64,000 nucleotides of DNA, from the NCBI GenBank assembly GCA_946409515.1, contig CAMJWS010000001.1, positions 318,824-382,823 of the forward strand. The letters are read 5' to 3'. The translations under genes and the position numbers were made by a program. Shown here one piece after another: positions 4,211 through 56,220 of this stretch; the stretch's first letter is position 1, and each line of letters opens with the position of its first letter. The DNA is from an uncultured Bacillales bacterium. GTDB lineage: Bacteria; Bacillota_I; Bacilli_A; RFN20; CAG-826. The notes under the pieces are model-generated. The model ran no database searches. It saw only the letters and a list, made by a program, of their open reading frames with translations, and was not told where the DNA came from.

Positions 4211-5168
4211 GCTTTTTCACCATTCTCCTGAAATGCAATAATTTTGCAACTATTCGTAAGCCAAAAAGCGGAATCAAAAAACGAACTATTTTTTGTTTAC
4301 CATTTTTTGTATACTTCACAATAAATTTTGTGCCCTTCAATTCTTTTAGAAGAGTTTTCTTTTCCTCTCCAGCAAAAAAAGAATAAGAAGAAAGCGATGC
4401 ATAAAACTCTTTTGAAATGTTGTTCAGCAATTCCATTTTTAATCGTCTATCCGACAAGCTATCAAAAAATTCAAAATTCTTTTTGACTGTTGTCAATCTG
4501 TTTAATTCGTTTTTTAGATTTGGCTTGCTTGTTATTGATCCTGGGCGCCCTAATTGATATTCATAGGCTTCAATCATGATCGGAGCAATGTGAGAAACCA
4601 AAGATAACGCTCTTGGTATTAAGTACACGTCTTCATAATTAATACCTTCTGGGAAGAATAAGCCATTAGAAACTAAAAAAGACTTTCTAAACAAATATTT
4701 CCAAGCATACCACCTAAAATGCGTTTTCTCTAAAATATTTGCCAATGTTCGCTCACCATCAATTTGAATTGGCAAATATTCTTCAACAGTCTTCCCATTT
4801 TTTATTGTCTTGTAGCCAAATTCATAAACATCAAAATCACAATTCTTCGCGTGATCTATTAAAATATCAATGGCACCATTGGCCAAGCAATCGTCAGAAT
4901 CAAGAAATTGGATGTATTCTCCTGTGGAAACATTTATTCCATAATTCCTTGCGCTGGATAGTCCTCCGTTGGTTTTTGTGAAAACTTTTACTCTTTTATC
5001 TATAGCAGAAATTTGCTCACACAATAAAAGACTATTGTCCGTTGAACCGTCATTGATAATGAGAACTTCGAAACAATTTTCTTTGCTCTTAAGCAAAGAG
5101 TCGAGGCATCTTTCAATAAGACTATATGTATTATAAACAGGTATTACTATACTTAATAACTTGCCCAT
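4197..5168 (-). CDS. Glycosyltransferase family 2
   Basis: LSIVIPVYN...INDGSTDNS...LDSDD motifs. Start chosen at internal Met (MGKLLSIV); the longer ORF to 5261 would overlap the upstream gene. Confidence 0.8.
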   Translation of the reverse strand: MGKLLSIVIPVYNTYSLIERCLDSLLKSKENCFEVLIINDGSTDNSLLLCEQISAIDKRVKVFTKTNGGLSSARNYGINVSTGEYIQFLDSDDCLANGAIDILIDHAKNCDFDVYEFGYKTIKNGKTVEEYLPIQIDGERTLANILEKTHFRWYAWKYLFRKSFLVSNGLFFPEGINYEDVYLIPRALSLVSHIAPIMIEAYEYQLGRPGSITSKPNLKNELNRLTTVKKNFEFFDSLSDRRLKMELLNNISKEFYASLSSYSFFAGEEKKTLLKELKGTKFIVKYTKNGKQKIVRFLIPLFGLRIVAKLLHFRRMVKKHDSF

Positions 5169-6265
5169 ATGATTGCTTTTTCTAGAGAATCGATAGTATA
5201 AGGGATGACGTTGTCCTTGCCAAAGCCTCCTTCGGCAAATTTCAAGTTGATTATCATCCATATGAAAAGAACACCATAAATAGCAGCCGGGACAAAAGTT
5301 TTTACCACTAAGTTACGGCTCCTTTTAATATTGTAAATTGAATTTGCAATCACAATTGGAAAGAAGGCAAAGAAATAATTCGAGAATCTTGATATCATTG
5401 CATTTTTAAGACTTAGCAATTGGAAAAAGAGTGAAAAGCACATAGCGCAATAAAGCATTGTATCAAGCCTCATTTCTTCTGTTCTATTGGTAATAAAAGA
5501 AAATGCCAAAATTTTATTCTTATCCATGACAATAACAGCAGCAAACAGAAGTAGATAAACAACGAAAAATCTGAGAGCACCTGTTTCTGTTTCACCAGGT
5601 CTATCTGCATACCCACTGTACATAAAACGCGTCAAAAATGAAAAAATTGGATCGAATAAAATGAAAACCAACAAAGTGATTGCTATAAAGAGGAACAGAG
5701 TCTTGAATGTAAACTTTTTAATAAAGAGAGACGCTATGATAAATAACAAAAAAACAAAGGCGCTTTTATGAATAGTTATAGCAACAAGATTTACGATAAT
5801 AGCAGGTATATATTTCTTTTTATAGGTCAAATAAAATGAAAGCATGCAGATACACACAGCCAAATCATTTCTCTGTGTGTTCATTAATCTCGTATAATAA
5901 CAAAACATGAAGAATAAAATTATGCTTGTTCCAAGACTTTTTGATGTCTTGTAAAAGACAAAAAAAGCAAGGCAAAGTGACAAGGAGCCCACAACAAAGA
6001 AAAAGAAAGTTTTTGTAGGAGAGATAAAAAAGATTGCTTTATTAAGATATAGCCATCCAGGCTCAATATATGTTGATGAAATATCAGTTTTCGGAGATTC
6101 CATAAACATATCAACATATGCCTTAGTATCCCATCCAACATTCACGCTTCTAAAAGTATACACTGCAATAAGTATTACTAGCGAGATGAGTAAAAGAACT
6201 TTTTTATTCTTCACTAAAACTGCAAGTATGATTATTAATGCTAAGAGAGATAAATAAAACAACAT
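5153..6265 (-). CDS. Wzy/EpsG-like oligosaccharide repeat-unit polymerase (polytopic membrane protein)
   Basis: About 370 aa with around 10 TM segments and no soluble domain, sitting between GT2 genes. Start trimmed to an internal Met to avoid overlap with the 6273 gene. Confidence 0.55.
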   Translation of the reverse strand: MLFYLSLLALIIILAVLVKNKKVLLLISLVILIAVYTFRSVNVGWDTKAYVDMFMESPKTDISSTYIEPGWLYLNKAIFFISPTKTFFFFVVGSLSLCLAFFVFYKTSKSLGTSIILFFMFCYYTRLMNTQRNDLAVCICMLSFYLTYKKKYIPAIIVNLVAITIHKSAFVFLLFIIASLFIKKFTFKTLFLFIAITLLVFILFDPIFSFLTRFMYSGYADRPGETETGALRFFVVYLLLFAAVIVMDKNKILAFSFITNRTEEMRLDTMLYCAMCFSLFFQLLSLKNAMISRFSNYFFAFFPIVIANSIYNIKRSRNLVVKTFVPAAIYGVLFIWMIINLKFAEGGFGKDNVIPYTIDSLEKAIIWASY

Positions 6266-37789: not shown

Positions 37790-39646
37790 TTAGAACTTCT
37801 TTTTCAAAGTAACAATATTCTTGTGATTGATATAGTCATAGGCGTATTCACTCATTAACTTCTTAACAATTAATATGCCTAAACCACCCTCCGCTCGTTT
37901 AGCGTAGTTGCCATCAAGTGGCTCATTATTAACGGTAAATGGATCGAACTTATCCGCTCTATCGATAATGGTCATAACGAATTCGTTTTGATCTTCATTA
38001 TAGAGCAATCTGATGAATATATCATCAGTGTATTCAGCGTAGCCGTATTTAATGATGTTAGATAGCATTTCATCAGCGACAACACATAAGCTATTAATGA
38101 AGCCTTCTTCAATGTTCATTTCATGAGCGAATTCTTCAATTAAACCAATCATCTTTGGAAGGCTATCTTTTTCGCCTCTAAATGTTTCTTGCTTATATAG
38201 ATATCTATCACCATGATATTTCATTGTGATATAAGTCATATCATCCGCTTGATCTTCACCATCAACGAATCTTTCAATATCGTCTTTTAAGGTGTGATGC
38301 AATTCTAATAAGCAGGAATACTTCTTCGCGTTAAATAAAGCGATTAAACGGTCTTCTCCATAGAATAAACCCTTAGAGTTACGGGCTTCGGTAATGCCGT
38401 CTGTATATAAAGTTAAAGTATCACCATTTTTAAGTTGATATTTCTCATTAGTGACGAATACATCTTTAAGAGGTCCTAAGACAAAACCTGGTTTACATTT
38501 TAAGTAATGATAGTCTTGTTTTTGACCAACAATAGGAGGATTGTGTCCCGCATTTGCGAAGTTCATCTCACCTGTTTTAGTGTTGATTACTGCATAGAAG
38601 CAGGTCACAAACATATTGGAGTCATTGCCTTTATTAATGATTCTATTAACTTCTTTTAAGACCTCTTCTGGAGTTTTATCAATAGAAGCACAGTTTCTAA
38701 AGCAAGTAATGGTTTTCATCATAAACATTGCCGCTGGAATACCTTTACCAGAGACATCAGCGATGACTAATGCTGCGTGTTCATTATCAAGCAAGAAATA
38801 GTCATAGAAGTCACCACCAACGTGCTTCGCTGCTTTTAGTTCTGCTTGAATTTCAATATCTTCACTAGTGACGAATTCCGTTGGTAATGTCGCCATTTGA
38901 ATCTCTTTAGCGACGTCTAATTCTGTTCTAGTCTTTTCTTGTTCACTATTAACACTAATTTCTTGTTTTAATAATTTATAAGTTCTGACGTTTAAGGAGT
39001 TCGAAACAACAAAGATCAACGCTAAGAGCAAAGCTCTTGGTAAGAAAGTAAAAGTCAAAGCTTGTAAGTATCTATTTTGACCTGCTACTAATTGTTCGTG
39101 TAATAAGTCATAACGTTCTTTAACACCAAAGACTTCTACCGCATCACCATTAACGACTTCTTTAATACCTAAGATATTCGCGTCATATTCACCTACGAAC
39201 AAAGATAAGAATAAGCAAAGTAACATTAAAATAGAAATCACACCAAAGGTGATTCTACCTAACTTAGGATTATAGTAATGGTTAGTCATAATGATACATA
39301 ATGCCCAACCAATAAATGAGTTCCTTGGTAAGATGACATTAAGTACGGCGATAATCATCACGAAAGAGAAAACCACAAAGAACTTATAATTTGGTTTCTT
39401 TAAAGCCTTCTTAAACTTAAATACATATAGCAAAGGCGTTAATAAGATAACGATACTAATTGGGAAGGCAATATTGATTAAAGGCATGATTTGAGGTGAA
39501 GCATAGAATGCCCCTGTCATATAGCAAATCCAAATGCCTAAAAGCAAAGCCGCACCAAAAGCGTTAGCGATACTCATCTGTTTGTTCGCATCCGCTTCGT
39601 TTTCGTAATAAGCTTCTAAATATTTATTTCTCTCAAACTCAGTCAT
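37790..39646 (-). CDS. Membrane-anchored PP2C (SpoIIE/RsbU-type) phosphatase fused to a C-terminal GHKL (RsbW-like HATPase_c) kinase domain
   Basis: About 6 N-terminal TM helices; central SpoIIE domain (ADVSGKGIPAAMFM, DGITEA); C-terminal HATPase_c (ADEMLSNIIKYG...GGLGILIVKKL). Confidence 0.75.
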   Translation of the reverse strand: MTEFERNKYLEAYYENEADANKQMSIANAFGAALLLGIWICYMTGAFYASPQIMPLINIAFPISIVILLTPLLYVFKFKKALKKPNYKFFVVFSFVMIIAVLNVILPRNSFIGWALCIIMTNHYYNPKLGRITFGVISILMLLCLFLSLFVGEYDANILGIKEVVNGDAVEVFGVKERYDLLHEQLVAGQNRYLQALTFTFLPRALLLALIFVVSNSLNVRTYKLLKQEISVNSEQEKTRTELDVAKEIQMATLPTEFVTSEDIEIQAELKAAKHVGGDFYDYFLLDNEHAALVIADVSGKGIPAAMFMMKTITCFRNCASIDKTPEEVLKEVNRIINKGNDSNMFVTCFYAVINTKTGEMNFANAGHNPPIVGQKQDYHYLKCKPGFVLGPLKDVFVTNEKYQLKNGDTLTLYTDGITEARNSKGLFYGEDRLIALFNAKKYSCLLELHHTLKDDIERFVDGEDQADDMTYITMKYHGDRYLYKQETFRGEKDSLPKMIGLIEEFAHEMNIEEGFINSLCVVADEMLSNIIKYGYAEYTDDIFIRLLYNEDQNEFVMTIIDRADKFDPFTVNNEPLDGNYAKRAEGGLGILIVKKLMSEYAYDYINHKNIVTLKKKF

Positions 39647-39648
39647 AA

Positions 39649-40803
39649 TTAGATACCTATATCAATGTCATCATATTTATCTAGTAAGGCAATTAATCTT
39701 TCCTTACAACCATTTAATCTCTTTTGATTATCCTTTTGGTTAGTTAATGTCCACCACACCATATGAGCGTAGCAAACTAAAGCAATCTTATCTTTAATAA
39801 TCTCATCTTCTTTACCGAAGTATAAACGGATAATATCATCATAAAGCTTGACACAGTACTCCCCTTTTAAGCCAAAGAACTGTTCACTATTACCTGGAGC
39901 ATCTTCTTCAAAAGCGACATATGGGCAGCGGAGATTTGCGAGTTCAAAGATTGGATGACCCACTGATAAGGTATCCATATCAATTAATAAGAAGTCTTCA
40001 CCTTGGACCATGATGTTTTTAAAGTGGCAGTCCCCATGGACAAAGGTACTTCTTTCAGGAACACTCTTCATAAGTGCTAAAGCTTTTTCATAATGAGCTT
40101 CATCTAAAAGAGGTTTAATGGTTTCCACTTTTTCGATAAAGAATTTCTTAATAGAAGGAACTGATGGATCAAAACATTTAGTACTATTAATCTTCTTTAA
40201 TAATTCGACATATTTATTTAATAATTCTTCATATTTTTCTGGATATTTACTAAAGGCATTCTTTAAAGACATACAGTCAAGCATTTCAAAACGGACACCT
40301 AGTTTATCCTTAACTTTAACGATATCAAAAGATATCGCAGTAGGAATACCTAAGACGAATGCTTGTTTAGCGAGTTTTAATTCTCTTTCAATTTGTTTTT
40401 CATCACTAGTTCTATTAAAGACCTTAATGATGGTGTCTTTATCGATACGATAAACTGTGGAGAAGAAACCTTCACCAATAACTTCCGCACCATCGACAGA
40501 CATTTCTCTAACGGCTTTTTTAACATCCATGATGTTGGTAAAACCAGTCATTTGTAAAACATCATAAACATCCAAACTAGCGTTTATAACATGTGAGTCA
40601 TTAAATCTCTGTTTAATCTTTAAGATAATACGAAGACCCGCACTAGAGATGTATTGAAGTTTAGCGAAGTCTAAATTGAGTGTTTGAAATTTATTTGAGG
40701 AAAGAACTTCATCAATTTCTTTTTCTATATACTCAGAATTATAAGAGTTAAGTTCTCCTTCGAAAAATAAAGTGAGTAAATTATCAATTAATTCAAAACG
40801 CAT
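39649..40803 (-). CDS. STAS (anti-sigma-factor antagonist-like) domain fused to an APH/protein-kinase-like phosphotransferase domain
   Basis: N-terminal STAS with a SpoIIAA-like phospho-Ser motif (YISSAGLRIIL). The C-terminal domain has a Gly-rich loop (IGEGFFSTVYR), beta3 Lys (IIKVF), a catalytic HGDCHFKNIM and IDMDT (Brenner/APH motifs). Confidence 0.7.
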   Translation of the reverse strand: MRFELIDNLLTLFFEGELNSYNSEYIEKEIDEVLSSNKFQTLNLDFAKLQYISSAGLRIILKIKQRFNDSHVINASLDVYDVLQMTGFTNIMDVKKAVREMSVDGAEVIGEGFFSTVYRIDKDTIIKVFNRTSDEKQIERELKLAKQAFVLGIPTAISFDIVKVKDKLGVRFEMLDCMSLKNAFSKYPEKYEELLNKYVELLKKINSTKCFDPSVPSIKKFFIEKVETIKPLLDEAHYEKALALMKSVPERSTFVHGDCHFKNIMVQGEDFLLIDMDTLSVGHPIFELANLRCPYVAFEEDAPGNSEQFFGLKGEYCVKLYDDIIRLYFGKEDEIIKDKIALVCYAHMVWWTLTNQKDNQKRLNGCKERLIALLDKYDDIDIGI

Positions 40804-40873
40804 ATACCGTCTCCCTTATATATGTATGCCTTTACATACATTATAACGAATTATACGTATACGCGCTAATTAT

Positions 40874-41836
40874 TTATATTTGTCCTTCGCTGCTTGAAGA
40901 TGGATTTGAACTACTATTACCAAATGGATTCTTAGGAGCGCTTAGTTCATAGGCTAAATTCATCACTGTATTCAATGAATCTTCATCGATGAGCTTTTCA
41001 AAAGATGTAGAGTAATTTCTACCATATTTATCTTGTGTTGAGTAATAAGCTTTTACTAATCTATCTTCTCTGAACACATCAATTGTCCAACCTGAGCCTC
41101 TGATATAAAGACGTGTCTCTGAACCATGTCTATAAAAGCCAACAGGTAAATTCTCAAACGTCGCGCTCTTTAAAGCGGTGCAAATAGAACCATCGTCTTT
41201 GAATGTGAAGTCATAATATCTTGCAGGTGTTTCATCAGTGACAAAGACGAATTCTAAATCGACATTTTCATCTTCACTCATTTTATTGATGACAGAGAAC
41301 AAGGTCATTTCATTAATCATGTCGTTATATTCACGCTCAATGTTGTCGCGTTCTTCTTGTTCTCTTCTTTCTTCTTCTCTAATGGCTTGATATTCATTAT
41401 CAATCATTTTGAAAACTGATTTTGCTATCTCTTCATCGAATTGATAATAAAAGGTAAGATCCTTTCCTTGATTTCGATCGTATCTACTTGTTGTGGCATA
41501 TCCATTCTCATAAAAAGCAATTTCATGGTATCCATATCCTAGGAACATAGTGTATCTAAAGTGCAAGGTAAAAGTTGTATCGCTTAATTCTGGTGTGCCT
41601 TTCATATATAAGTATTCGGCATCATCAACCTTAGATATTACCTTATTAACGATGTCACCATTAAATCTGTAAGTATTATATGTTATATAATTTCCACCAA
41701 TGTTAGTCTTAGCGAGATATTTACTTGGGTTTTGCTCAGCAGTATAGTCTCTATCGCTTTTAAAAAGCCAGGAACAGGATGCTGTAGAGATAACGATAAG
41801 GGAAATAGGTAACATTAGTAACGCTTTTTTGCTCAT
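40874..41836 (-). CDS. Lipoprotein, function unknown
   Basis: Signal peptide with lipobox ISTASC; acidic ERREQEER repeat segment. Confidence 0.5.
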   Translation of the reverse strand: MSKKALLMLPISLIVISTASCSWLFKSDRDYTAEQNPSKYLAKTNIGGNYITYNTYRFNGDIVNKVISKVDDAEYLYMKGTPELSDTTFTLHFRYTMFLGYGYHEIAFYENGYATTSRYDRNQGKDLTFYYQFDEEIAKSVFKMIDNEYQAIREEERREQEERDNIEREYNDMINEMTLFSVINKMSEDENVDLEFVFVTDETPARYYDFTFKDDGSICTALKSATFENLPVGFYRHGSETRLYIRGSGWTIDVFREDRLVKAYYSTQDKYGRNYSTSFEKLIDEDSLNTVMNLAYELSAPKNPFGNSSSNPSSSSEGQI

Positions 41837-41904
41837 AGTGGTTTACCACCTTTCACTTATTAGACGTTAATAAATATAGAAAACTGCTAAACAAATATCA
41901 ATCT

Positions 41905-42255
41905 TTATGAATGATATTGCTTCAGCAACTCTTTTTTAGCGGTTTCTAAGTCAATCTTACCAATAGTGTATAAATGAATAATCTTCTTTGCTTGAGAAGA
42001 TGGCTCCATGCCATCGGTAGAGTTAATAATGTACGCTAAGGTTTCAATTTCTGTAGGTTCTTTTTCTTCATCATTCAATTCAAAAGGAATGCCTTTTTTC
42101 AAAGCGACTTGTCGTAAGAATAAATCAATAGCCTGACTCATAGATATGCCAATTGTATTAAGTATCCTTTCTGCTTCCTTTTTAATGTCGGATTGTATCC
42201 TTGCGTGCACTACCTCATTCTTCATATTCCATATCCTCACTAAAAATTGCATCAC
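41905..42255 (-). CDS. Ribbon-helix-helix protein, RelB/DinJ antitoxin-like, with C-terminal extension; no adjacent toxin gene
   Basis: VHARIQSDIKKEAERILNTIGISMSQAIDLFLRQVALKKGIPFEL aligns with the DinJ N-terminal RHH. The true start is probably an internal Met (MKNEVV, about 42225). Confidence 0.55.
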   Translation of the reverse strand: MMQFLVRIWNMKNEVVHARIQSDIKKEAERILNTIGISMSQAIDLFLRQVALKKGIPFELNDEEKEPTEIETLAYIINSTDGMEPSSQAKKIIHLYTIGKIDLETAKKELLKQYHS

Positions 42256-42308
42256 GAACGTGACACATTATCAAAGTATTATTAGCACTATTATCTTGAG
42301 ATAATTAC

Positions 42309-43433
42309 TTAAAACTTCTTTAGTAATTCTCTAATATGTTCAAGGCACTTTTTCTTATCTTCTTCAGGCATATTGCGTTTCTTAAGATAATGTAAAGCGC
42401 GTACACAGCCAATTAATCTAGCTTTATCAATCGCGAGTTGATATTGTTTATCATTTAAATCACTATAGTATTTTCTAGAGATTGTTTTCCATAAATAATT
42501 CGCGGTCTCTAGGGAGATACCTAAAAAGTCTTCAATCGCTGCGCGTCTAATTTCACCAAATTCGAAATATGAGTTACAGACACTAGCGATTTCAAATATT
42601 GGATTACCAGTACATAAGGTATCCATATCAATAAGCATTAGGTCATTACCAACTAGAAGTTGGTTCTTAAGATGAAAATCACCATGAATAAGAGTCTTAG
42701 TTTCTGGTATATCTTCAATAAGTTTTTTAAGTTTTAGATATTCTTGGTCGCTTAAGAAGATTCTAATGTTATTCACATATTTAAGATGACTCTTCTTCAT
42801 ATCTGGTAATGAAGGATCATCACAAACTGTTGTGTGCATCTTCTTTAAGACAGCCACTGCTTTATCAGCAAAGTCATCAAGATTCTTTTGACTTTGTTTA
42901 ACGTAGTTGACACATGATTCAGCATTTAATAATTCAAAGACTGTACCATATTGGTCGCCCACTTTAACTGTATCAAGCGCTATCGCGGTAGGTAAACCTA
43001 GTACAAATGCCTTTTTAGATAGTTCTCTTTCTCGATTAATATCTTCTAATGAGGAACCTAGTTCATAGACCTTAACAATGGTATCTGGGGCAGTAGAATA
43101 TACGGTACCGTGTGCGCCCTTTCCGATAATTTTGCAGCCATCTACTGACACTTGACGTAAGGCTTTTTCAACAGTGACGATATTAGTGAAACCTGTCATT
43201 TCAAAGATGTCATAAACAGAGATAGAAGTATTAATAACACAGACTTTATCAAATCTCTTTTTAAGGCCTAAAACAACACGAAGACCCGCACTAGAAATGT
43301 ATTTCATTCCCTGTGCATCAAGCACTATTTCGTCATAACTATGACCTTCTATTTGCTTAAGAATATCTGCTTCAACTTCAGCAAAATTATCAAATGATAA
43401 AGAAGATGGTAATTGATAAGTAAAGATAACCAT
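42309..43433 (-). CDS. STAS domain + APH/protein-kinase-like domain fusion (paralog of 39649-40803)
   Basis: YISSAGLRVVL STAS motif; IGKGAHGTVYS Gly-loop; HGDFHLKNQLL catalytic loop; IDMDT. Confidence 0.7.
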   Translation of the reverse strand: MVIFTYQLPSSLSFDNFAEVEADILKQIEGHSYDEIVLDAQGMKYISSAGLRVVLGLKKRFDKVCVINTSISVYDIFEMTGFTNIVTVEKALRQVSVDGCKIIGKGAHGTVYSTAPDTIVKVYELGSSLEDINRERELSKKAFVLGLPTAIALDTVKVGDQYGTVFELLNAESCVNYVKQSQKNLDDFADKAVAVLKKMHTTVCDDPSLPDMKKSHLKYVNNIRIFLSDQEYLKLKKLIEDIPETKTLIHGDFHLKNQLLVGNDLMLIDMDTLCTGNPIFEIASVCNSYFEFGEIRRAAIEDFLGISLETANYLWKTISRKYYSDLNDKQYQLAIDKARLIGCVRALHYLKKRNMPEEDKKKCLEHIRELLKKF

Positions 43434-48543: not shown

Positions 48544-49230
48544 TTAAATTACTCCACATGGAATAAGTATAACAAGAAGAAGGGCCACTAGTCCCCATTC
48601 TGCAATTAAGAATATATTACGTGTCTTTGGTTTCATATCTGGAACATAGTTACTAGCAAGGAAGAATGGAATGTATGTAGTAATAAATACTGGAATAACG
48701 CCCCACCATGGATAGACCCAGATAAATGAGTTATTAGATGTGCCCGCTAAGAAGGATTCAAATAAGGCAAATAATAAGGCCATTTCAATAGCAACCATTA
48801 ATTTACAACTAATGCCTTTAAACTTACCTCTAGCAAAATATCTCTTAGTTCTATCTTGAGGCATCATCTTAAAGGAAATAATACCCGCTAAAGAGAACAT
48901 CATGGATAATTCCCAAGAAACACCAATTAAAAGAATAAATGTTGTGGACTGATTAGATACCGCCCATAAAGGATAACCACTGGCTTTAGCGATTATTGCA
49001 TTAGCGATTTCATATAACCAGTGCACACCATATAAGGCTAAGCCTGCTTGTACAGCCGCATAGTTCTTCTTATGGATTTCACTCCAATAGACATAGAAAA
49101 CTACGGCTAAGATGAAAATAAACGTCCAATTAAAGTTATTTGTGTCGCGCACTAAAATGGCATCAACAAGATCCTTGGCGCCTTGTGAGCCATCGCCCCA
49201 AAATTTGAAATTCATATGTATATACCTCAA
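48544..49230 (-). CDS. Hypothetical integral membrane protein
   Basis: 228 aa; 6 TM. Confidence 0.4.
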   Translation of the reverse strand: MRYIHMNFKFWGDGSQGAKDLVDAILVRDTNNFNWTFIFILAVVFYVYWSEIHKKNYAAVQAGLALYGVHWLYEIANAIIAKASGYPLWAVSNQSTTFILLIGVSWELSMMFSLAGIISFKMMPQDRTKRYFARGKFKGISCKLMVAIEMALLFALFESFLAGTSNNSFIWVYPWWGVIPVFITTYIPFFLASNYVPDMKPKTRNIFLIAEWGLVALLLVILIPCGVI

Positions 49231-49337
49231 TTTGATTATATACCAAAAAGTATTAGAAAATATCTCACTTTATTGTGGTTTTTAAATTTTTTCGAACGTT
49301 TTAGGCAATTAAATTGTATTATTAGTGAAGGGTAACC

Positions 49338-49832
49338 ATGGCAAAAACTCTATACTCAGCATTCTTTAATAAAGAGGATTGGGCCGTTAAAGAGGTCTAT
49401 TCCTACTACTCACGCTTAGTGAAGCATGTTTCTTTTGAAATACTTCATGATAATGACCTAGCGGATGATGTCGTTAGTGAAACATTTATCAAGTTATTAG
49501 AAAAAGGAAAAGTTGATAACGATAGTAACTTTGTTGCCTATATGTGCGCTATCGCGAAGAACTTATCCTTAAACATGATAAAAGAAAGAAATAGATATGA
49601 ATCACTGAACGAAGATATCGCTATGTCCACTGATGAAAAGAAGGACGACATCCTTGATATCTTAAAGGGTAAGTTAGAAGAAGATGAATATAATATCCTC
49701 GTTATGCGAGCGGTACTAGAGTATCCCTTCAATGATATTGCTCTAGTTTATAAAGCCACAGCTTCTTCAATGCGTGGCATCTACTTCAGAGCAAAGAAAA
49801 AAGCACAAAAACTTTTGGAGGGACTTTTATGA
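49338..49832 (+). CDS. ECF-type sigma-70 family RNA polymerase sigma factor
   Basis: 164 aa; region 2-like DLADDVVSETFIKLL and region 4-like FNDIALVYKATASSMRGIYFRAKKK. Confidence 0.65.
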   Translation: MAKTLYSAFFNKEDWAVKEVYSYYSRLVKHVSFEILHDNDLADDVVSETFIKLLEKGKVDNDSNFVAYMCAIAKNLSLNMIKERNRYESLNEDIAMSTDEKKDDILDILKGKLEEDEYNILVMRAVLEYPFNDIALVYKATASSMRGIYFRAKKKAQKLLEGLL

Positions 49833-51301
49833 GTTTGAAAAACAAATTAAAAGAAGCTTACAGCAATAAAGTAACCACCCCTAAGGGTTATCAAGAATTA
49901 AATAATAAAGTTGAAATAAAGAAAACCCACCACAATGCCTTTAAAACAGTGAAGTGGGTCAGCATTGGTTCATTATCTCTTGTGGGTACATTCGTATTAG
50001 TGGTCGCTAGTGTCGCTATTTTCTCTAACATGAAGATCACTGAGAATTTTGCAGACAGTGTTAAGAAAGCAAGATTCTCCATGTATGACACCAACTTATT
50101 AGAGAGTGAAACATTTAAGCGCCTTAATAACATCACTTATGATCAAGAAAAGAAAAACGAACCAATAAGTGAAGACTTTGTTACCTATGTAAATAGTTTT
50201 ACAGAAAAGACCTATCAAGGTTTTAATAAAACATCTAACTTTGCGTATTCTCCTTTAATGGTGTATACCCAAATGGACCTCATCTCCTTAGCGCTCTCTG
50301 ACGATGAAGCCATCGCAGAAGTTAATGCCGCTTTAGGTACAAGTGATATGGAGTTTAGAGGCACTAATGTGCGTAACGCTATGCTTAACAATTCCTATGC
50401 GAATAAGGAATATAAGAGTACCGTACAAACTAAAAACGCTGTGTTCTATGATCCAGATCGCGCTGAATCAGACATTAATCAAAATTTCTTAACAGGTTTA
50501 ACCGCTAGACGCGCTGAAGCTTATAGTATGAGTTATAATCTTGATAATGATATCAATAACATCCTTAAATGGATTGATGAAAGTGTGAATGAAACTGGAT
50601 TCTTAACCAAACAAGATTTAGAAATAGATGAAGATACATTTATTATGTTTGTTTCCAGTTTATATTTTGATAATGCTTGGCAAAACAAATATGTCGCTAA
50701 AGACACTAAAAATGATACTTTCCATCTTAGTGATGGAGAAACAGTCACTACAAAGTTTATGAACCATGTCATCCTCAATGAATATCGTGACTTTGGTGAT
50801 TATGTTTCAGTAAAAGACGGCTATAGATATGGCTACTATGTAGAGTACTTTGTGCCTAAAAAGCTTGAGGATAATATCTTTAACGTTTTGCCAAACGATT
50901 TCTTAACTAAAGAAGTTGAGCCTAAATACGCTGCAATTAGTCTTTCGGTTCCTAAACTTGATATGACATGTAAAAGTGACATTACTGACATCATTAAAGG
51001 AACAGGCATTCAAAAGATGTATGAACACGAATCAGGCCACTACTACTTAGATAATGCCTGTGAAACACCAAACTTTGAAGATGCATCATGGGTTAAGTTC
51101 ACAAAGCAAAAAACTTCTGTGAGTTTTGATGAAGATGGCACAGTTGTTAAATCAATCACTTTCTCCGTCGGCAATGGAACGGACTCATATCATCCTAGTA
51201 ATGGTTATGAAGTGACATTAAATCAACCATTTGTGTACGTCATTAAAGATAGTAACGGTTTGCCTCTTGTTCTAGGAGCAGTAAATAATCCAAAAGCGTA
51301 A
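49829..51301 (+). CDS. Membrane-anchored serpin-family protein (candidate anti-sigma factor/partner of the ECF sigma)
   Basis: ATGA start overlap with the sigma gene. About 40-aa cytoplasmic N-terminus and one TM. The extracytoplasmic domain carries serpin hallmarks FIMFVSSLYFDNAWQNKY (breach/shutter), FDEDGTVVKSITFSVGNG (hinge and reactive-centre loop) and PFVYVIKDSNGLPLVLGAVNNP (C-terminal serpin motif). Confidence 0.65.
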   Translation: MSLKNKLKEAYSNKVTTPKGYQELNNKVEIKKTHHNAFKTVKWVSIGSLSLVGTFVLVVASVAIFSNMKITENFADSVKKARFSMYDTNLLESETFKRLNNITYDQEKKNEPISEDFVTYVNSFTEKTYQGFNKTSNFAYSPLMVYTQMDLISLALSDDEAIAEVNAALGTSDMEFRGTNVRNAMLNNSYANKEYKSTVQTKNAVFYDPDRAESDINQNFLTGLTARRAEAYSMSYNLDNDINNILKWIDESVNETGFLTKQDLEIDEDTFIMFVSSLYFDNAWQNKYVAKDTKNDTFHLSDGETVTTKFMNHVILNEYRDFGDYVSVKDGYRYGYYVEYFVPKKLEDNIFNVLPNDFLTKEVEPKYAAISLSVPKLDMTCKSDITDIIKGTGIQKMYEHESGHYYLDNACETPNFEDASWVKFTKQKTSVSFDEDGTVVKSITFSVGNGTDSYHPSNGYEVTLNQPFVYVIKDSNGLPLVLGAVNNPKA

Positions 51302-51330
51302 AAAAGAAGCCCTCTTAGAGGGCTTTTTTA
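51301..51330. terminator. Bidirectional intrinsic terminator
   Basis: AAGCCCTCTTAGAGGGCTT hairpin followed by TTTTTT. Confidence 0.7.
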
Positions 51331-53212: not shown

Positions 53213-53270
53213 ATGAATTACTATAGCAAAAAAGAATCAGGTAATAAACCTGACTCTTATTAATCGATCA
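53107..53270. repeat. Direct repeat copy A (amidohydrolase 5' end plus upstream terminator)
   Basis: About 85% identical to 54121-54278. Confidence 0.7.
53227..53254 (-). terminator. Intrinsic terminator after the 275-aa gene
   Basis: TCAGGTAATAAACCTGA hairpin followed by a U-run on the minus strand. Confidence 0.6.
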
Positions 53271-54087
53271 CTTTCTTTCCAGTAAATATATCGGTATAGA
53301 GACTTTCTTCGTATTCTCTTAGTTTTTCTTCATACTCTTCTTTGGTTATTTCGCCATCGCTGAACTTTTTGGCTAAGTAATATTCATGAGTATATAAATC
53401 GGTATAGCGACCAAAAACTAATTCCGTTGTATTAGGGTATAGTGGCTTTTGCTTATCATAATGATTATTTTCGCCCTTAATTAGATATAAGAAATCGATA
53501 TCTTCTTCTTTGGCATAAGACCACCACCAGAGGTGCCGGTTACCGGGTCTATTTGTATCAAAGCGAATAATTACATACCCTTGCTTTTTTTCGCTATATT
53601 TGAATACCATGGCGTATTCAGGGCTAGTTTTAAAATAGGCTTTGATATAGACATTGTCACCGAATTTAAATTTTTTGCCATTACACGAGCCTTCATCATA
53701 AGTTTCTTTGGGAAAACGTTCTAGAGTTTGTCTATTGTATTCCTCTCTAGTTATCTCGCCGTCGGTAACTCTTTTTGCCAAATAATAATCATCAGTGTAT
53801 AACTCACCATATTTAGCGGGATAAATGCATGTGTCTTCAGAAAATAATGGTTTATGTCTATCATAATAGTTATCTTTACCATCAATCTTTTCTAGAAGTT
53901 CAATGTCATCTTCTTTAGCGTAAGACCACCACCAAGAAGGATCTTCTGGAGAATAGGCATCGAACACAATGATGACATACATCTCTTTACTCTCGTCATA
54001 CTTAAATATCTGTGCATAGCAGCAGTCGATTTTTAAATAGGCTTTAACATAGACATTGTCACCAAATTTAAATTTTCTTTTCATCAT
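53260..54087 (-). CDS. Hypothetical protein built from two tandem copies of a domain of about 135 aa (KFKFGDNVY...WWWSYAKE-D...YYLAK...DGEIT.EEY)
   Basis: Residues about 5-135 and about 138-270 align along their length with roughly 45% identity. Confidence 0.5.
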   Translation of the reverse strand: MMKRKFKFGDNVYVKAYLKIDCCYAQIFKYDESKEMYVIIVFDAYSPEDPSWWWSYAKEDDIELLEKIDGKDNYYDRHKPLFSEDTCIYPAKYGELYTDDYYLAKRVTDGEITREEYNRQTLERFPKETYDEGSCNGKKFKFGDNVYIKAYFKTSPEYAMVFKYSEKKQGYVIIRFDTNRPGNRHLWWWSYAKEEDIDFLYLIKGENNHYDKQKPLYPNTTELVFGRYTDLYTHEYYLAKKFSDGEITKEEYEEKLREYEESLYTDIFTGKKVID

Positions 54088-54120: not shown

Positions 54121-54278
54121 GGGTGAACAACACCATTATTGACGACAGTATAGCCAGACTTAATTTCTTTAAGTTCTTAAACTGATTCAGAATAGACAAT
54201 ATTACCGTGATAGATTTCCATATATGAAACACTATAGCAAAAATAAACCAGGTATTAAACCTGGCTGTGATTATTTTA
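54121..54278. repeat. Direct repeat copy B (degenerate, non-coding copy of the amidohydrolase 5' end plus terminator)
   Basis: Alignable to 53107-53270 and includes a copy of the hairpin (CCAGGTATTAAACCTGG). It falls in intergenic DNA, so the CDS fragment is a remnant. Confidence 0.7.
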
Positions 54279-56220
54279 TTTTTTTGTAAGCATTTGATAA
54301 ATACAAACCAATTGCGTCAATGTCATAGAATGGTCTGACATCGTAGAATACTGATGATCCGTTTCCATATTCAATTGGATAATCAACAGGGACACCACCA
54401 TCGATATTATCGCCCGCTCTATTTGAACACATCAAAAAGTTAGAACGGATAAATGGGGTACCATCTGCGGTGGTTTGTGAACAAATAGAACAACTACCGC
54501 CACCACTTTTTTGGCCTAAAATCTTATAGCCCAATTCTTTTGCGCATGCTGGGAATAAATTAGCGCATGAGAATGAATAATTACTTGTTAAAACACCAAT
54601 GTTGAAGTCAAAGCTCTTCGCGGCTTCTTTATCTTGTTCATCGTATTTACCATCTAAGTTGATATCCACGATATATTCATCAACCATATCATATTTATTA
54701 AATGTGTCTTTAGAGCAATCAAAACCAACACCACCATTCAATAAACCCAATAGGCCTATATTTGCACAAGTATCGCCACCACCATTAGAGCAGATGTCTA
54801 AAACGATATTCTTTACTCCTTCCTGCTTCGCTTTATTAAAGGAACTTAGAACATAGCCAAAAGAATCACCATTTGTTGGAGCGGGACCTAAACCCTTATA
54901 GTAATCATCCCAGCCTTCATAATCGACATGGAATTGTGGGAAGCCAATATAAGCGGTTGGATTACCTTCTGGGTGATAATAGTAATAACTATGACCACCA
55001 ATTGGACGATCATAATAGAAAGAATAATATGCATAAGCTTTTTTGTTTTGAATGTTATTTACTTTATTGAATAGAGTAGTAAATTCACTAACCCTAGAAG
55101 CTTTTGATTTAGACATGTCATAATTGTCTGAACCAGATGGTAAATAAGTATGACCGCCATCGTATAAACCAGCGAACAAAGCATGTAATCCTTGATAATA
55201 TTGATCTTTATCCGTGGACAATAAATATTGTTTAATCTTTGGATGATGTTGTTCTAATAAGCCATCAAGGCCTAATGTTTGGAATAGTTCATCGCCAAAG
55301 ACCATTTGCTTTGTATAGCCACGATAACTATCAAAGGACATGCATAATTCGTTATAAACGTAATTAGCTAAATCAACTGGTCTTGCTTCGCTTAAATCAT
55401 CTATTTTTGTGTAATAGTTGTCATAACTATCAGGAGTGGTTTGCTCGCCCATTGCTTCATACCAGTCTAAAATAAAGATTTCTTTACCGTTATACGCGAT
55501 GTTATAAACCGCGACAGAACCACTGAAAGAACTTAATAACGTTAATGGAGCATAGACGTCTTCATCATCAAAATAAACGTTAATGGAATACTTTGCTAAG
55601 TTAATAGTGCCTATCTCTGGTTGTGATTTAGTGGTATTGAGCTTGTCTTGAATAAAGATCTTAGAAGTTGAAGAGACAAAATCAGGGTGATTAGAAAAGG
55701 CCACTAAATCGTTAGATGTGAATATATCATTAGTGTAATCAAAAGCAAAATAGCTACCAGATGGTAAAGAATAACGTAAGGTATTATTGTTTTCTCTAAC
55801 AATCTCTAATTCAGTTCTAAAGAACTCTTTATAGTATTTGTCCACTGAAATGTATGGGACATTAGGAGTGTCTTTGTAATAGCGGAGCGTTGTGGAATCA
55901 GGACATTTCACATGGCTTTTATGATTAACATTGACTTGTTTATCAATGTACTGTTTATCTGATGGCCAAGAGCTAGAGTTAGAAGCGCTACTACTGGAAT
56001 AGGAACTACTACTAGAAGACGATGTGCTAGAAGAAGTTGATGTGCTTGTACTAGTGGATGTGCTTGTACTAGTGGATGTAGAAGATGGTGTTCCGTTAAA
56101 AGAATCGCTTCTAGAAAAGTGACTATCAAAAGTTGAGGTAGCACTATTAGCAGGCATACAGCCTACTACAAGCAATGATATGGCAACAGGGACTAGTAAT
56201 ATTTTCTTTCTCATAATCAA
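54271..56220 (-). CDS. Lipoprotein with Ser/Thr-rich low-complexity linker and C-terminal S41 peptidase-like domain
   Basis: Signal peptide with lipobox LVVGC; (STS)n-(S)n linker; IVLDICSNGGGD resembles the S41 DLRxNxGG motif. Confidence 0.5.
   Translation of the reverse strand: MIMRKKILLVPVAISLLVVGCMPANSATSTFDSHFSRSDSFNGTPSSTSTSTSTSTSTSTSTSSSTSSSSSSSYSSSSASNSSSWPSDKQYIDKQVNVNHKSHVKCPDSTTLRYYKDTPNVPYISVDKYYKEFFRTELEIVRENNNTLRYSLPSGSYFAFDYTNDIFTSNDLVAFSNHPDFVSSTSKIFIQDKLNTTKSQPEIGTINLAKYSINVYFDDEDVYAPLTLLSSFSGSVAVYNIAYNGKEIFILDWYEAMGEQTTPDSYDNYYTKIDDLSEARPVDLANYVYNELCMSFDSYRGYTKQMVFGDELFQTLGLDGLLEQHHPKIKQYLLSTDKDQYYQGLHALFAGLYDGGHTYLPSGSDNYDMSKSKASRVSEFTTLFNKVNNIQNKKAYAYYSFYYDRPIGGHSYYYYHPEGNPTAYIGFPQFHVDYEGWDDYYKGLGPAPTNGDSFGYVLSSFNKAKQEGVKNIVLDICSNGGGDTCANIGLLGLLNGGVGFDCSKDTFNKYDMVDEYIVDINLDGKYDEQDKEAAKSFDFNIGVLTSNYSFSCANLFPACAKELGYKILGQKSGGGSCSICSQTTADGTPFIRSNFLMCSNRAGDNIDGGVPVDYPIEYGNGSSVFYDVRPFYDIDAIGLYLSNAYKKIK
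55960..56090. repeat. Low-complexity coding repeat (Ser/Thr codons; tandem GATGTGCTTGTACTAGTG x2)
   Basis: Encodes the STSTSTS...SSSSS linker of the lipoprotein. Confidence 0.6.

Follow-up and report, generated by a model that had tools for sequence, protein, structure and literature searches.

The window analysed here, a 64 kb stretch (64,000 nucleotides) of contig CAMJWS010000001.1 from an uncultured Bacillales bacterium, carries on its forward strand a two-gene operon in which a gene for an extracytoplasmic function (ECF) sigma factor overlaps a gene for a membrane-anchored serpin. An earlier note on this DNA, made from the sequence alone, had drawn attention to the pair and suggested that the serpin stands where an anti-sigma factor is normally encoded. 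The features of the operon are listed below, with coordinates in the window and residues in amino acids (aa).

49293..49321, + strand: ECF-type promoter (-35 element CGAAC followed by a T-tract, 13-nt spacer, -10 element GTATTA)
49327..49332, + strand: Shine-Dalgarno sequence of the sigma gene, GAAGGG, read from the sequence
49338..49832, + strand: ECF (group 4) sigma-70 factor, 164 aa, identified by profile matches
49817..49832, + strand: translational coupling region, comprising a GGAGGG Shine-Dalgarno sequence within the sigma gene (49817-49822) and ATGA (49829-49832)
49829..51301, + strand: membrane-anchored serpin and candidate anti-sigma factor, 490 aa (Pfam PF00079, E = 7.9e-31)
49829..49963, + strand: cytoplasmic tail, aa 1-45, a putative sigma-binding segment, lysine-rich with a net charge of +7
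49964..50020, + strand: single transmembrane helix, aa 46-64 (Kyte-Doolittle 19-residue maximum mean of 2.31)
50075..50143, + strand: family-specific extracytoplasmic motif, aa 83-105, (Y/F)S..E...TFKxLNxIxY(P), between the membrane and serpin helix A
50189..51292, + strand: serpin domain, aa 121-488, covering positions 3-370 of the 370 in the Pfam profile
51131..51205, + strand: hinge (E435-D-G-T-V-V-K-S-I-T-F-S446) and distal reactive-centre loop (aa 447-459)
51303..51329, + strand: intrinsic terminator, a 12-bp stem followed by a T-run, shared with a convergent HAD hydrolase gene

The upstream gene encodes a small sigma factor composed of regions 2 and 4 only. It matches Pfam Sigma70_r2 (E = 1.5e-10) and, weakly, the Pfam family for region 4 (E = 0.03), and the NCBIfam profile TIGR02937 (sigma70-ECF) covers almost the whole protein (aa 16-160; 61.3 bits against a cut-off of 42.9), which identifies it as an ECF sigma factor. 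The start codon of the serpin gene (ATG, 49829-49831) overlaps the stop codon of the sigma gene (TGA, 49830-49832), with GGAGGG located 6 nt upstream. Both open reading frames (ORFs), and the ATGA that joins them, are present where the earlier note had placed them. The TGAAGGG block 5' of the sigma start codon is retained in related loci from other genomes, which are described below.

The promoter, CGAACGTTTT-N13-GTATTA, is the sole match to this motif in the window, where 0 are expected by chance, and the same motif was found 5' of the sigma gene in 11 related loci. The aligned DNA upstream of the sigma genes reads CGAAC(G/A)TTTT, 12-14 nt, GT(A/C/T)T(T/A)A. At the sequence level this has the AAC-containing -35 and GT-containing -10 elements of an autoregulatory ECF promoter, and both resemble their counterparts in the Bacillus sigma-W/M/X class. 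No sigma-70-type promoter was detected in the 108-nt intergenic region between 49230 and 49338. The conserved ECF-type promoter upstream and the strong terminator after the serpin gene suggest a unit consisting of promoter, sigma gene, serpin gene and terminator that is probably autoregulated. The earlier note had raised, as a second option, that the sigma factor controls the expression of the inhibitor, and this appears to be true since the operon has its own conserved ECF-type promoter. It leaves the anti-sigma interpretation standing, because the operon looks autoregulated.

In related loci the promoter motif occurs once per locus and always just 5' of the sigma gene, with the exception of locus L011, where a second copy (4896-4925) lies 5' of two lipoprotein genes (4941-5774 and 5771-6136). 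A near-identical element is found at about 9740-9790 in L010, a locus related to L011, and it too precedes a lipoprotein pair. The lipoprotein pair may therefore belong to the regulon in the L011/L010 lineage, a first hint of a regulon that extends beyond the operon. No convincing further regulon promoter was found in the window, and a partial match at 42255-42281 was rejected as a regulon promoter as it has no gene downstream.

Architecture of the serpin protein

Homologues of the serpin form 56 clusters at 90% identity and nearly all are 481-509 aa long, which makes the N-terminal extension a feature of the family. Conservation was assessed in 37 diverse members (approximately 25-63% identity) unless otherwise stated. 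A hydrophobic segment comparable to the transmembrane helix is present in all 66 family members examined. In the window protein the tail has a charge of +7 compared to +1 for the 25 aa past the helix, while the family medians are +5 and +1 respectively, and the tail is the more positive side in 58 of the 66 members. This bias in charge suggests that the N-terminus is inside the cell and that the C-terminal part of approximately 425 aa is outside. The serpin is thus single-pass with a cytoplasmic N-terminus, as membrane anti-sigma factors are, and the short cytoplasmic N-terminus, single helix (aa 46-64) and extracytoplasmic serpin domain described in the earlier note are all upheld.

One of the two AlphaFold models described below predicts helices in the tail at aa 3-14 and 21-27, and the first of these (aa 3-12/14) is common to both models. 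Conservation of the first 12 residues (consensus M-x-x-K-K-K-L-K-x-x-Y) is on a par with that of the serpin core (top-residue frequencies of 0.42 and 0.44, respectively). In the outer half of the transmembrane helix, the position aligned to V59 is a proline in 76% of the 37 members, and the window lineage has Gly/Ser nearby. Helix-destabilising residues are a feature of site-2 protease substrates. The extracytoplasmic motif at aa 83-105 is strongly conserved (N100 invariant, Y104 in 97% of members, F96 in 89% and L99 in 84%) and is modelled with a predicted local distance difference test (pLDDT) score of 80-86.

The remainder of the protein is a serpin. The PF00079 match is full-length, with a score of 108 bits against a cut-off of 27 (E = 7.9e-31), which answers the profile search that the earlier note had recommended, and all 37 diverse members match the same family. 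Chains of alpha-1-antitrypsin match the protein at about 1e-13. The peptides that the earlier note had quoted as serpin hallmarks are present at aa 270-287 (FIMFVSSLYFDNAWQNKY), aa 433-453 (FDEDGTVVKSITFSVGNGTDS) and aa 467-488 (PFVYVIKDSNGLPLVLGAVNNP). Two AlphaFold models, built from alignments of 47 and 66 sequences, have mean pLDDT scores of 76.9 and 82.7, with most of the core above 85. When the models were compared to the PDB using Foldseek, the top matches were all serpins (E-values down to 2e-26 and TM-scores, normalised to the target, of up to 0.84), in agreement with a serpin three-dimensional fold.

The hinge is a low-entropy, nearly invariant segment. Among members of 27-95% identity, G437 does not vary and E435 and T438 each show at least 90% conservation, so that the P17 Glu, P15 Gly and P14 Thr/Ser signature of serpin hinges is present. 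The family pattern at P12-P9 is V/A/I, K/R, S/T, I/V/L. The distal loop is 5 residues longer than in alpha-1-antitrypsin and aa 445-459 are modelled with pLDDT scores below 50. Within it, aa 448-457 form the second most variable 10-aa window among relatives of at least 80% identity, and aa 446-455 rank second in the group with 60-70% identity. A conserved hinge followed by a hypervariable bait is the pattern to be expected if the loop comes into contact with proteases. When relatives of at least 80% identity are compared, aa 399-408 (EHESGHYYLD; 51023-51052 in the window) vary even more than the reactive loop and rank first among all 10-residue windows. In both models aa 437-446/448 form a strand beside s5A, which corresponds to the loop-inserted form of a serpin. 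The models show that the loop sequence is compatible with insertion, and they are not informative about the native state.

Conservation of the sigma factor-serpin pair

We collected 24 loci anchored on serpin homologues, three from metagenome contigs and 21 from GTDB species genomes. The genomes are metagenome-assembled and labelled as uncultured Bacilli, Erysipelotrichaceae or Bacillales, and several are assigned to ruminant stomach samples (rumen or omasum of buffalo, sheep, goat and water deer). Wherever the DNA 5' of the serpin gene is available (21 loci), the gene is immediately preceded by a sigma gene on its own strand (21/21), across serpin identities of 27-95%, and in loci anchored instead on sigma homologues the serpin gene is downstream in three out of three. 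In 23 related loci, the spacing between the two genes lies between a 14-nt overlap and a 5-nt gap, and the overlap is 4 nt in 13 or 14 of them, according to which start codon is taken for L016. The serpin gene is therefore adjacent to, and predicted to be co-transcribed with, a sigma gene, as genes for membrane anti-sigma factors are. The two most divergent sigma factors (L023 and L024) were recognised by eye and their relatives were later recovered by the sigma profile. In L026 (4495-6104), the serpin following an identical sigma factor is called as a 343-aa protein after a 577-nt gap, while its sister locus L025 is intact (4492-5949; 485 aa), so the L026 serpin may be a disrupted or rearranged copy.

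Each lineage has its own set of genes around the pair. Flanking ORFs were compared across 19 loci (99 ORFs) and showed no enriched Pfam family, and where gene calls with Pfam matches were available the closest neighbours of the pair are unrelated genes. No conventional anti-sigma factor is found among the 25 commonest of the 90 Pfam families in these flanking ORFs. The survey of related genomes that the earlier note had proposed thus shows a pairing of sigma factor and membrane-anchored serpin that is invariant across a diverse family, and pairing with a conventional anti-sigma factor was not seen within the family.

A profile search with the sigma factor separates the family cleanly, with members at 1e-32 or better and everything else at 1e-18 or worse. 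Of the sigma factors examined outside the family, the two nearest are each followed by an overlapping gene for an anti-sigma factor of conventional type, in one case a zf-HC2 protein (HxxxCxxC motif) and in the other a DUF4367 protein. The serpin thus sits in the anti-sigma slot.

We also searched exhaustively with a profile of aa 1-120, which recovered 55 proteins at the 50% identity level. Serpin is the sole Pfam assignment in all 37 full-length proteins scanned, 34 of which come from these profile matches. Nine of the short matches that were read continue from the module into a serpin domain that is cut off. A further two of the matches read do not fit this picture, P0082 (174 aa, out of frame past the module) and P0112 (a spurious 1139-aa repeat protein). 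Setting these two aside, the N-terminal module was found on serpins only among the matches examined, and its use as a mobile anti-sigma domain on non-serpin proteins was rejected. In 17 pairs of sigma factor and serpin, a partial Mantel test of the sigma factor against the tail, given the serpin core, yielded r = 0.54 (permutation p = 0.0005), and the transmembrane helix as a control gave -0.01.

Several neighbouring genes were recorded in the window and in related loci. Upstream of the operon is a divergent gene (48544-49230, - strand; recorded together with 49112-49285 on the + strand) for a 228-aa multi-pass membrane protein with no Pfam match. The membrane protein is retained in L005 and L007 with the same intergenic sequence, which suggests local synteny only. 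On the other side, a 275-aa protein (53260-54087, - strand) has two similar halves, each starting KFKFGDNVY[VI]KAY, and a SHOCT domain match. The gene at 54271-56220 (- strand), 3 kb from the serpin gene, encodes a lipoprotein of 649 aa that combines a Peptidase_S41 domain (E = 7e-11) with a long linker rich in Ser/Thr. One homologue is encoded directly upstream of the sigma gene in the distant L015 (3456-5330), and the syntenic L007 has another. The genes immediately upstream of the sigma gene encode an 881-aa protein with Peptidase_C11 and Big_2 domains in L002 (2803-5448) and a 311-aa Transglut_core protein in L025 and L026 (3001-3936). These S41, C11 and transglutaminase-like proteins are encoded beside the pair in a few loci and no family is enriched, so a conserved partner protease was rejected as a defining feature. 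Further away in the window (37790-43433, - strand) are genes for a 618-aa fusion of a SpoIIE phosphatase with an HATPase_c_2 domain similar to RsbW and for two fusions of STAS and APH kinase-like domains (384 and 374 aa). The same partner-switching genes are directly beside the pair in L002 (7449-10482) and within 3 kb of it in L001 (592-2921) and L018. The window had no PADLOC match for anti-phage defence and no plasmid match.

A candidate anti-sigma factor with a proposed serpin sensor

The data show how the operon is built and coupled, the topology and fold of the serpin protein, its pattern of conservation, and that it takes the position of an anti-sigma factor. We lean, somewhat beyond an even balance, towards the interpretation that the two genes form a self-contained ECF sigma/anti-sigma module, in which the anti-sigma factor is a type II membrane protein with a serpin as its extracytoplasmic sensor. 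The module is probably a switch by which gene expression responds when proteases attack the cell surface, and it is found in uncultured Bacilli of the rumen and gut.

The module could work as follows. The conserved amphipathic N-terminal helix (M-x-x-K-x-K-L-K-x-x-Y), together with the rest of the 45-aa tail, would hold the sigma factor at the membrane in the manner of a class II anti-sigma factor. A foreign or self protease would cut the exposed reactive loop, upon which the hinge would insert into beta-sheet A (the stressed-to-relaxed transition) and the protease might be trapped. By analogy with the clamp of the serpin tengpin, the conserved membrane-proximal segment (aa 67-105) would be docked on the serpin body, and loop insertion would free or expose it. 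The exposed segment would then be open to site-1 cleavage, with the helix cut afterwards by an intramembrane site-2 protease. The released sigma factor would transcribe its own operon, so that the amount of serpin on the surface rises, together with a small number of other genes, including the lipoprotein pair in one lineage. The serpin protein would in this way detect proteolytic attack and also protect against it, a double role that RsiV/sigma-V has for lysozyme. That the serpin switch acts as a signal transducer through this chain (loop cleavage, insertion, clamp release, intramembrane proteolysis and free sigma factor) is a tentative proposal which we rate below even. We are similarly doubtful, while thinking it possible, that such a transducer constitutes a direct, irreversible, single-protein protease sensor in bacteria with a specificity set by the loop sequence.

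A number of observations weigh against the anti-sigma interpretation or the proposed mechanism. The tail (aa 1-120 searched) has no anti-sigma match in Pfam or NCBIfam at E-values up to 1, a profile of the same region has no match in the PDB at E-values up to 10, and no anti-sigma domain (zf-HC2, RskA, RsiV-type and similar) was detected by Pfam in any of the 37 members. The earlier note's question of whether the N-terminal 40 or so residues resemble an anti-sigma domain is thus answered in the negative. Its placing of the serpin in the anti-sigma position keeps the genomic argument, from the invariant pairing and from the slot used by the nearest outside sigma factors, and loses the support of a domain match in the tail. 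A class I anti-sigma domain would not fit into a tail of approximately 45 aa, and conservation is low at aa 13-42 (top-residue frequency of 0.27). In the Mantel tests the juxtamembrane segment also gave r = 0.27, and partial Mantel tests are liberal on related sequences, so the co-divergence of tail and sigma factor is taken as suggestive only. A site-2 protease motif (HExxH with LDG) was not found in window ORFs of at least 150 aa, and no protease family is enriched beside the module. Lastly, P12-P9 of the hinge is V-K-S-I and not the Ala/Gly/Ser run of small side chains typical of inhibitory serpins, and both models best match latent tengpin and loop-cleaved serpins, not native forms. The structural prediction suggested in the earlier note therefore bears out the serpin fold and a reactive-centre loop with a conserved hinge, and leaves a metastable inhibitory form unsupported, as the models are loop-inserted and the hinge is non-canonical.

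Some of these points would fit an arrangement in which the serpin is only a regulated product, a membrane-anchored inhibitor whose tail and helix are a signal anchor, with the sigma factor controlled otherwise or not post-translationally. The lack of a recognisable anti-sigma domain and the variable aa 13-42 are in keeping with this, the ECF-type promoter implies that the sigma factor does control the serpin, and membrane-anchored prokaryotic serpins have been noted before (PMC8233489). However, a signal anchor needs neither core-like conservation of its first 12 residues nor a tail that co-diverges with the sigma factor while the transmembrane helix does not. An autoregulated sigma factor without a brake would be constitutively on, the closest other sigma factors carry anti-sigma factors in exactly this slot, and every locus retains the tight coupling, even at 27% identity. 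We regard this arrangement as unlikely. In another arrangement, the sigma factor would answer to the partner-switching proteins encoded nearby (the SpoIIE-HATPase_c_2 and STAS-APH fusions), with the serpin simply carried along as cargo. Such genes are present in the window and close to the pair in L002, L001 and L018, but are absent within approximately 6 kb of it in most lineages, and RsbW-type kinases usually act on group 3 sigma factors, not ECF sigma factors. This we consider very improbable.

A different possibility retains the anti-sigma factor and alters what it senses: the serpin could be non-inhibitory and already relaxed, and respond to a non-protease ligand or to the state of the envelope, as hormone-carrier or chaperone serpins do. 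The non-canonical hinge (V-V-K-S-I-T at P13-P8) would suit such a protein, as would the fact that two models from different alignments are both loop-inserted, with latent tengpin and cleaved serpins as their best PDB matches. AlphaFold, however, has no means of telling the thermodynamic minimum apart from a native state that is kinetically trapped. The hinge E-x-G-T, which decays in known non-inhibitory serpins, is nearly invariant across this family, and the distal loop is one of the two segments that evolve fastest when close relatives are compared, as a bait in contact with proteases does. A relaxed serpin of this kind appears quite unlikely to us.

The proposed serpin anti-sigma factor and known systems

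No serpin anti-sigma factor or sigma-linked serpin is described in the literature we searched on serpins with anti-sigma or ECF sigma factors, or in the main text of the ECF classification 2.0 paper. The earlier note, too, knew of no serpin described as an anti-sigma factor. A recent phylogenetic survey of the superfamily noted membrane-anchored prokaryotic serpins and described what serpins in general do in many prokaryotes as enigmatic (PMC8233489). Signalling through ECF sigma and anti-sigma factors is itself established, and what is new here is the sensor domain and the trigger it implies. The family described here is hard-wired to a transcription factor, which gives it a concrete, testable function. 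If the interpretation is true, it would provide a defined physiological role for a prokaryotic serpin family and a new class of anti-sigma sensor that reads proteolytic attack via a cleavage-driven fold change, for which the lysozyme receptor RsiV is the nearest parallel. It may explain how uncultured Bacilli protect their surface proteins in the protease-rich rumen. The module is also small, with promoter, sigma factor and sensor in about 2 kb, and the variation of the loop between close relatives suggests that it could be re-targeted as a protease biosensor.

In its short cytoplasmic part and single transmembrane helix, the serpin is similar to short class II anti-sigma factors such as CnrY of Cupriavidus, in which the sigma-binding part consists of approximately 30-45 residues in one or two helices and is followed by a single transmembrane helix. 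No sequence similarity to CnrY was detected. CnrY has a small periplasmic part only and works with a partner sensor, CnrX. The serpin fold, and its exposure outside the cell in protease-rich gut or oral habitats, are shared with miropin and the siropins (PMC5127057; PDB 5ncs). These soluble or lipid-anchored proteins differ in being stand-alone inhibitors, and a link between them and a sigma factor was not encountered in the literature found.

Tengpin of Thermoanaerobacter tengcongensis is, like the serpin described here, a Firmicute serpin with an additional N-terminal region before helix A. The N-terminal segment of tengpin covers a hydrophobic patch and traps the native state of the serpin (PMC1905895; PDB 2pee and 2pef). 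Both models have latent tengpin as their closest structural match, and TFKxLNxIxY (aa 95-104) is located in a position equivalent to the tengpin extension. By analogy, this suggests a way in which loop insertion could be felt at the membrane-proximal segment. The two proteins share approximately 19% identity over the Foldseek alignment, and the extension of the window protein, unlike that of tengpin, runs on into a transmembrane helix and a cytoplasmic tail and is encoded by a gene coupled to a sigma factor.

The closest functional parallel is RsiV/sigma-V of Bacillus subtilis and its relatives, which likewise consists of a co-transcribed ECF sigma factor and a single-pass partner with its N-terminus inside, in Firmicutes. 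Once RsiV has bound lysozyme, it is cleaved at site 1 (PMC4183432, PMC5014341 and PMC6066255). In that system, the binding of a hostile host enzyme to the extracytoplasmic domain leads to site-1 cleavage and intramembrane proteolysis, and the regulon confers resistance to the same enzyme. The logic proposed here would be identical, with a protease in place of lysozyme. The components differ, as the extracytoplasmic domain is a serpin and not an RsiV/DUF4179 fold (serpin is the only significant Pfam family, at E of 0.001 or below, in the protein and 37 relatives) and the tail of approximately 45 aa has no detectable anti-sigma domain. The resemblance to RsiV is therefore functional and not one of family membership. 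The proposed trigger would differ too: RsiV responds to reversible binding, whereas the serpin would respond to an irreversible, cleavage-driven change of fold.

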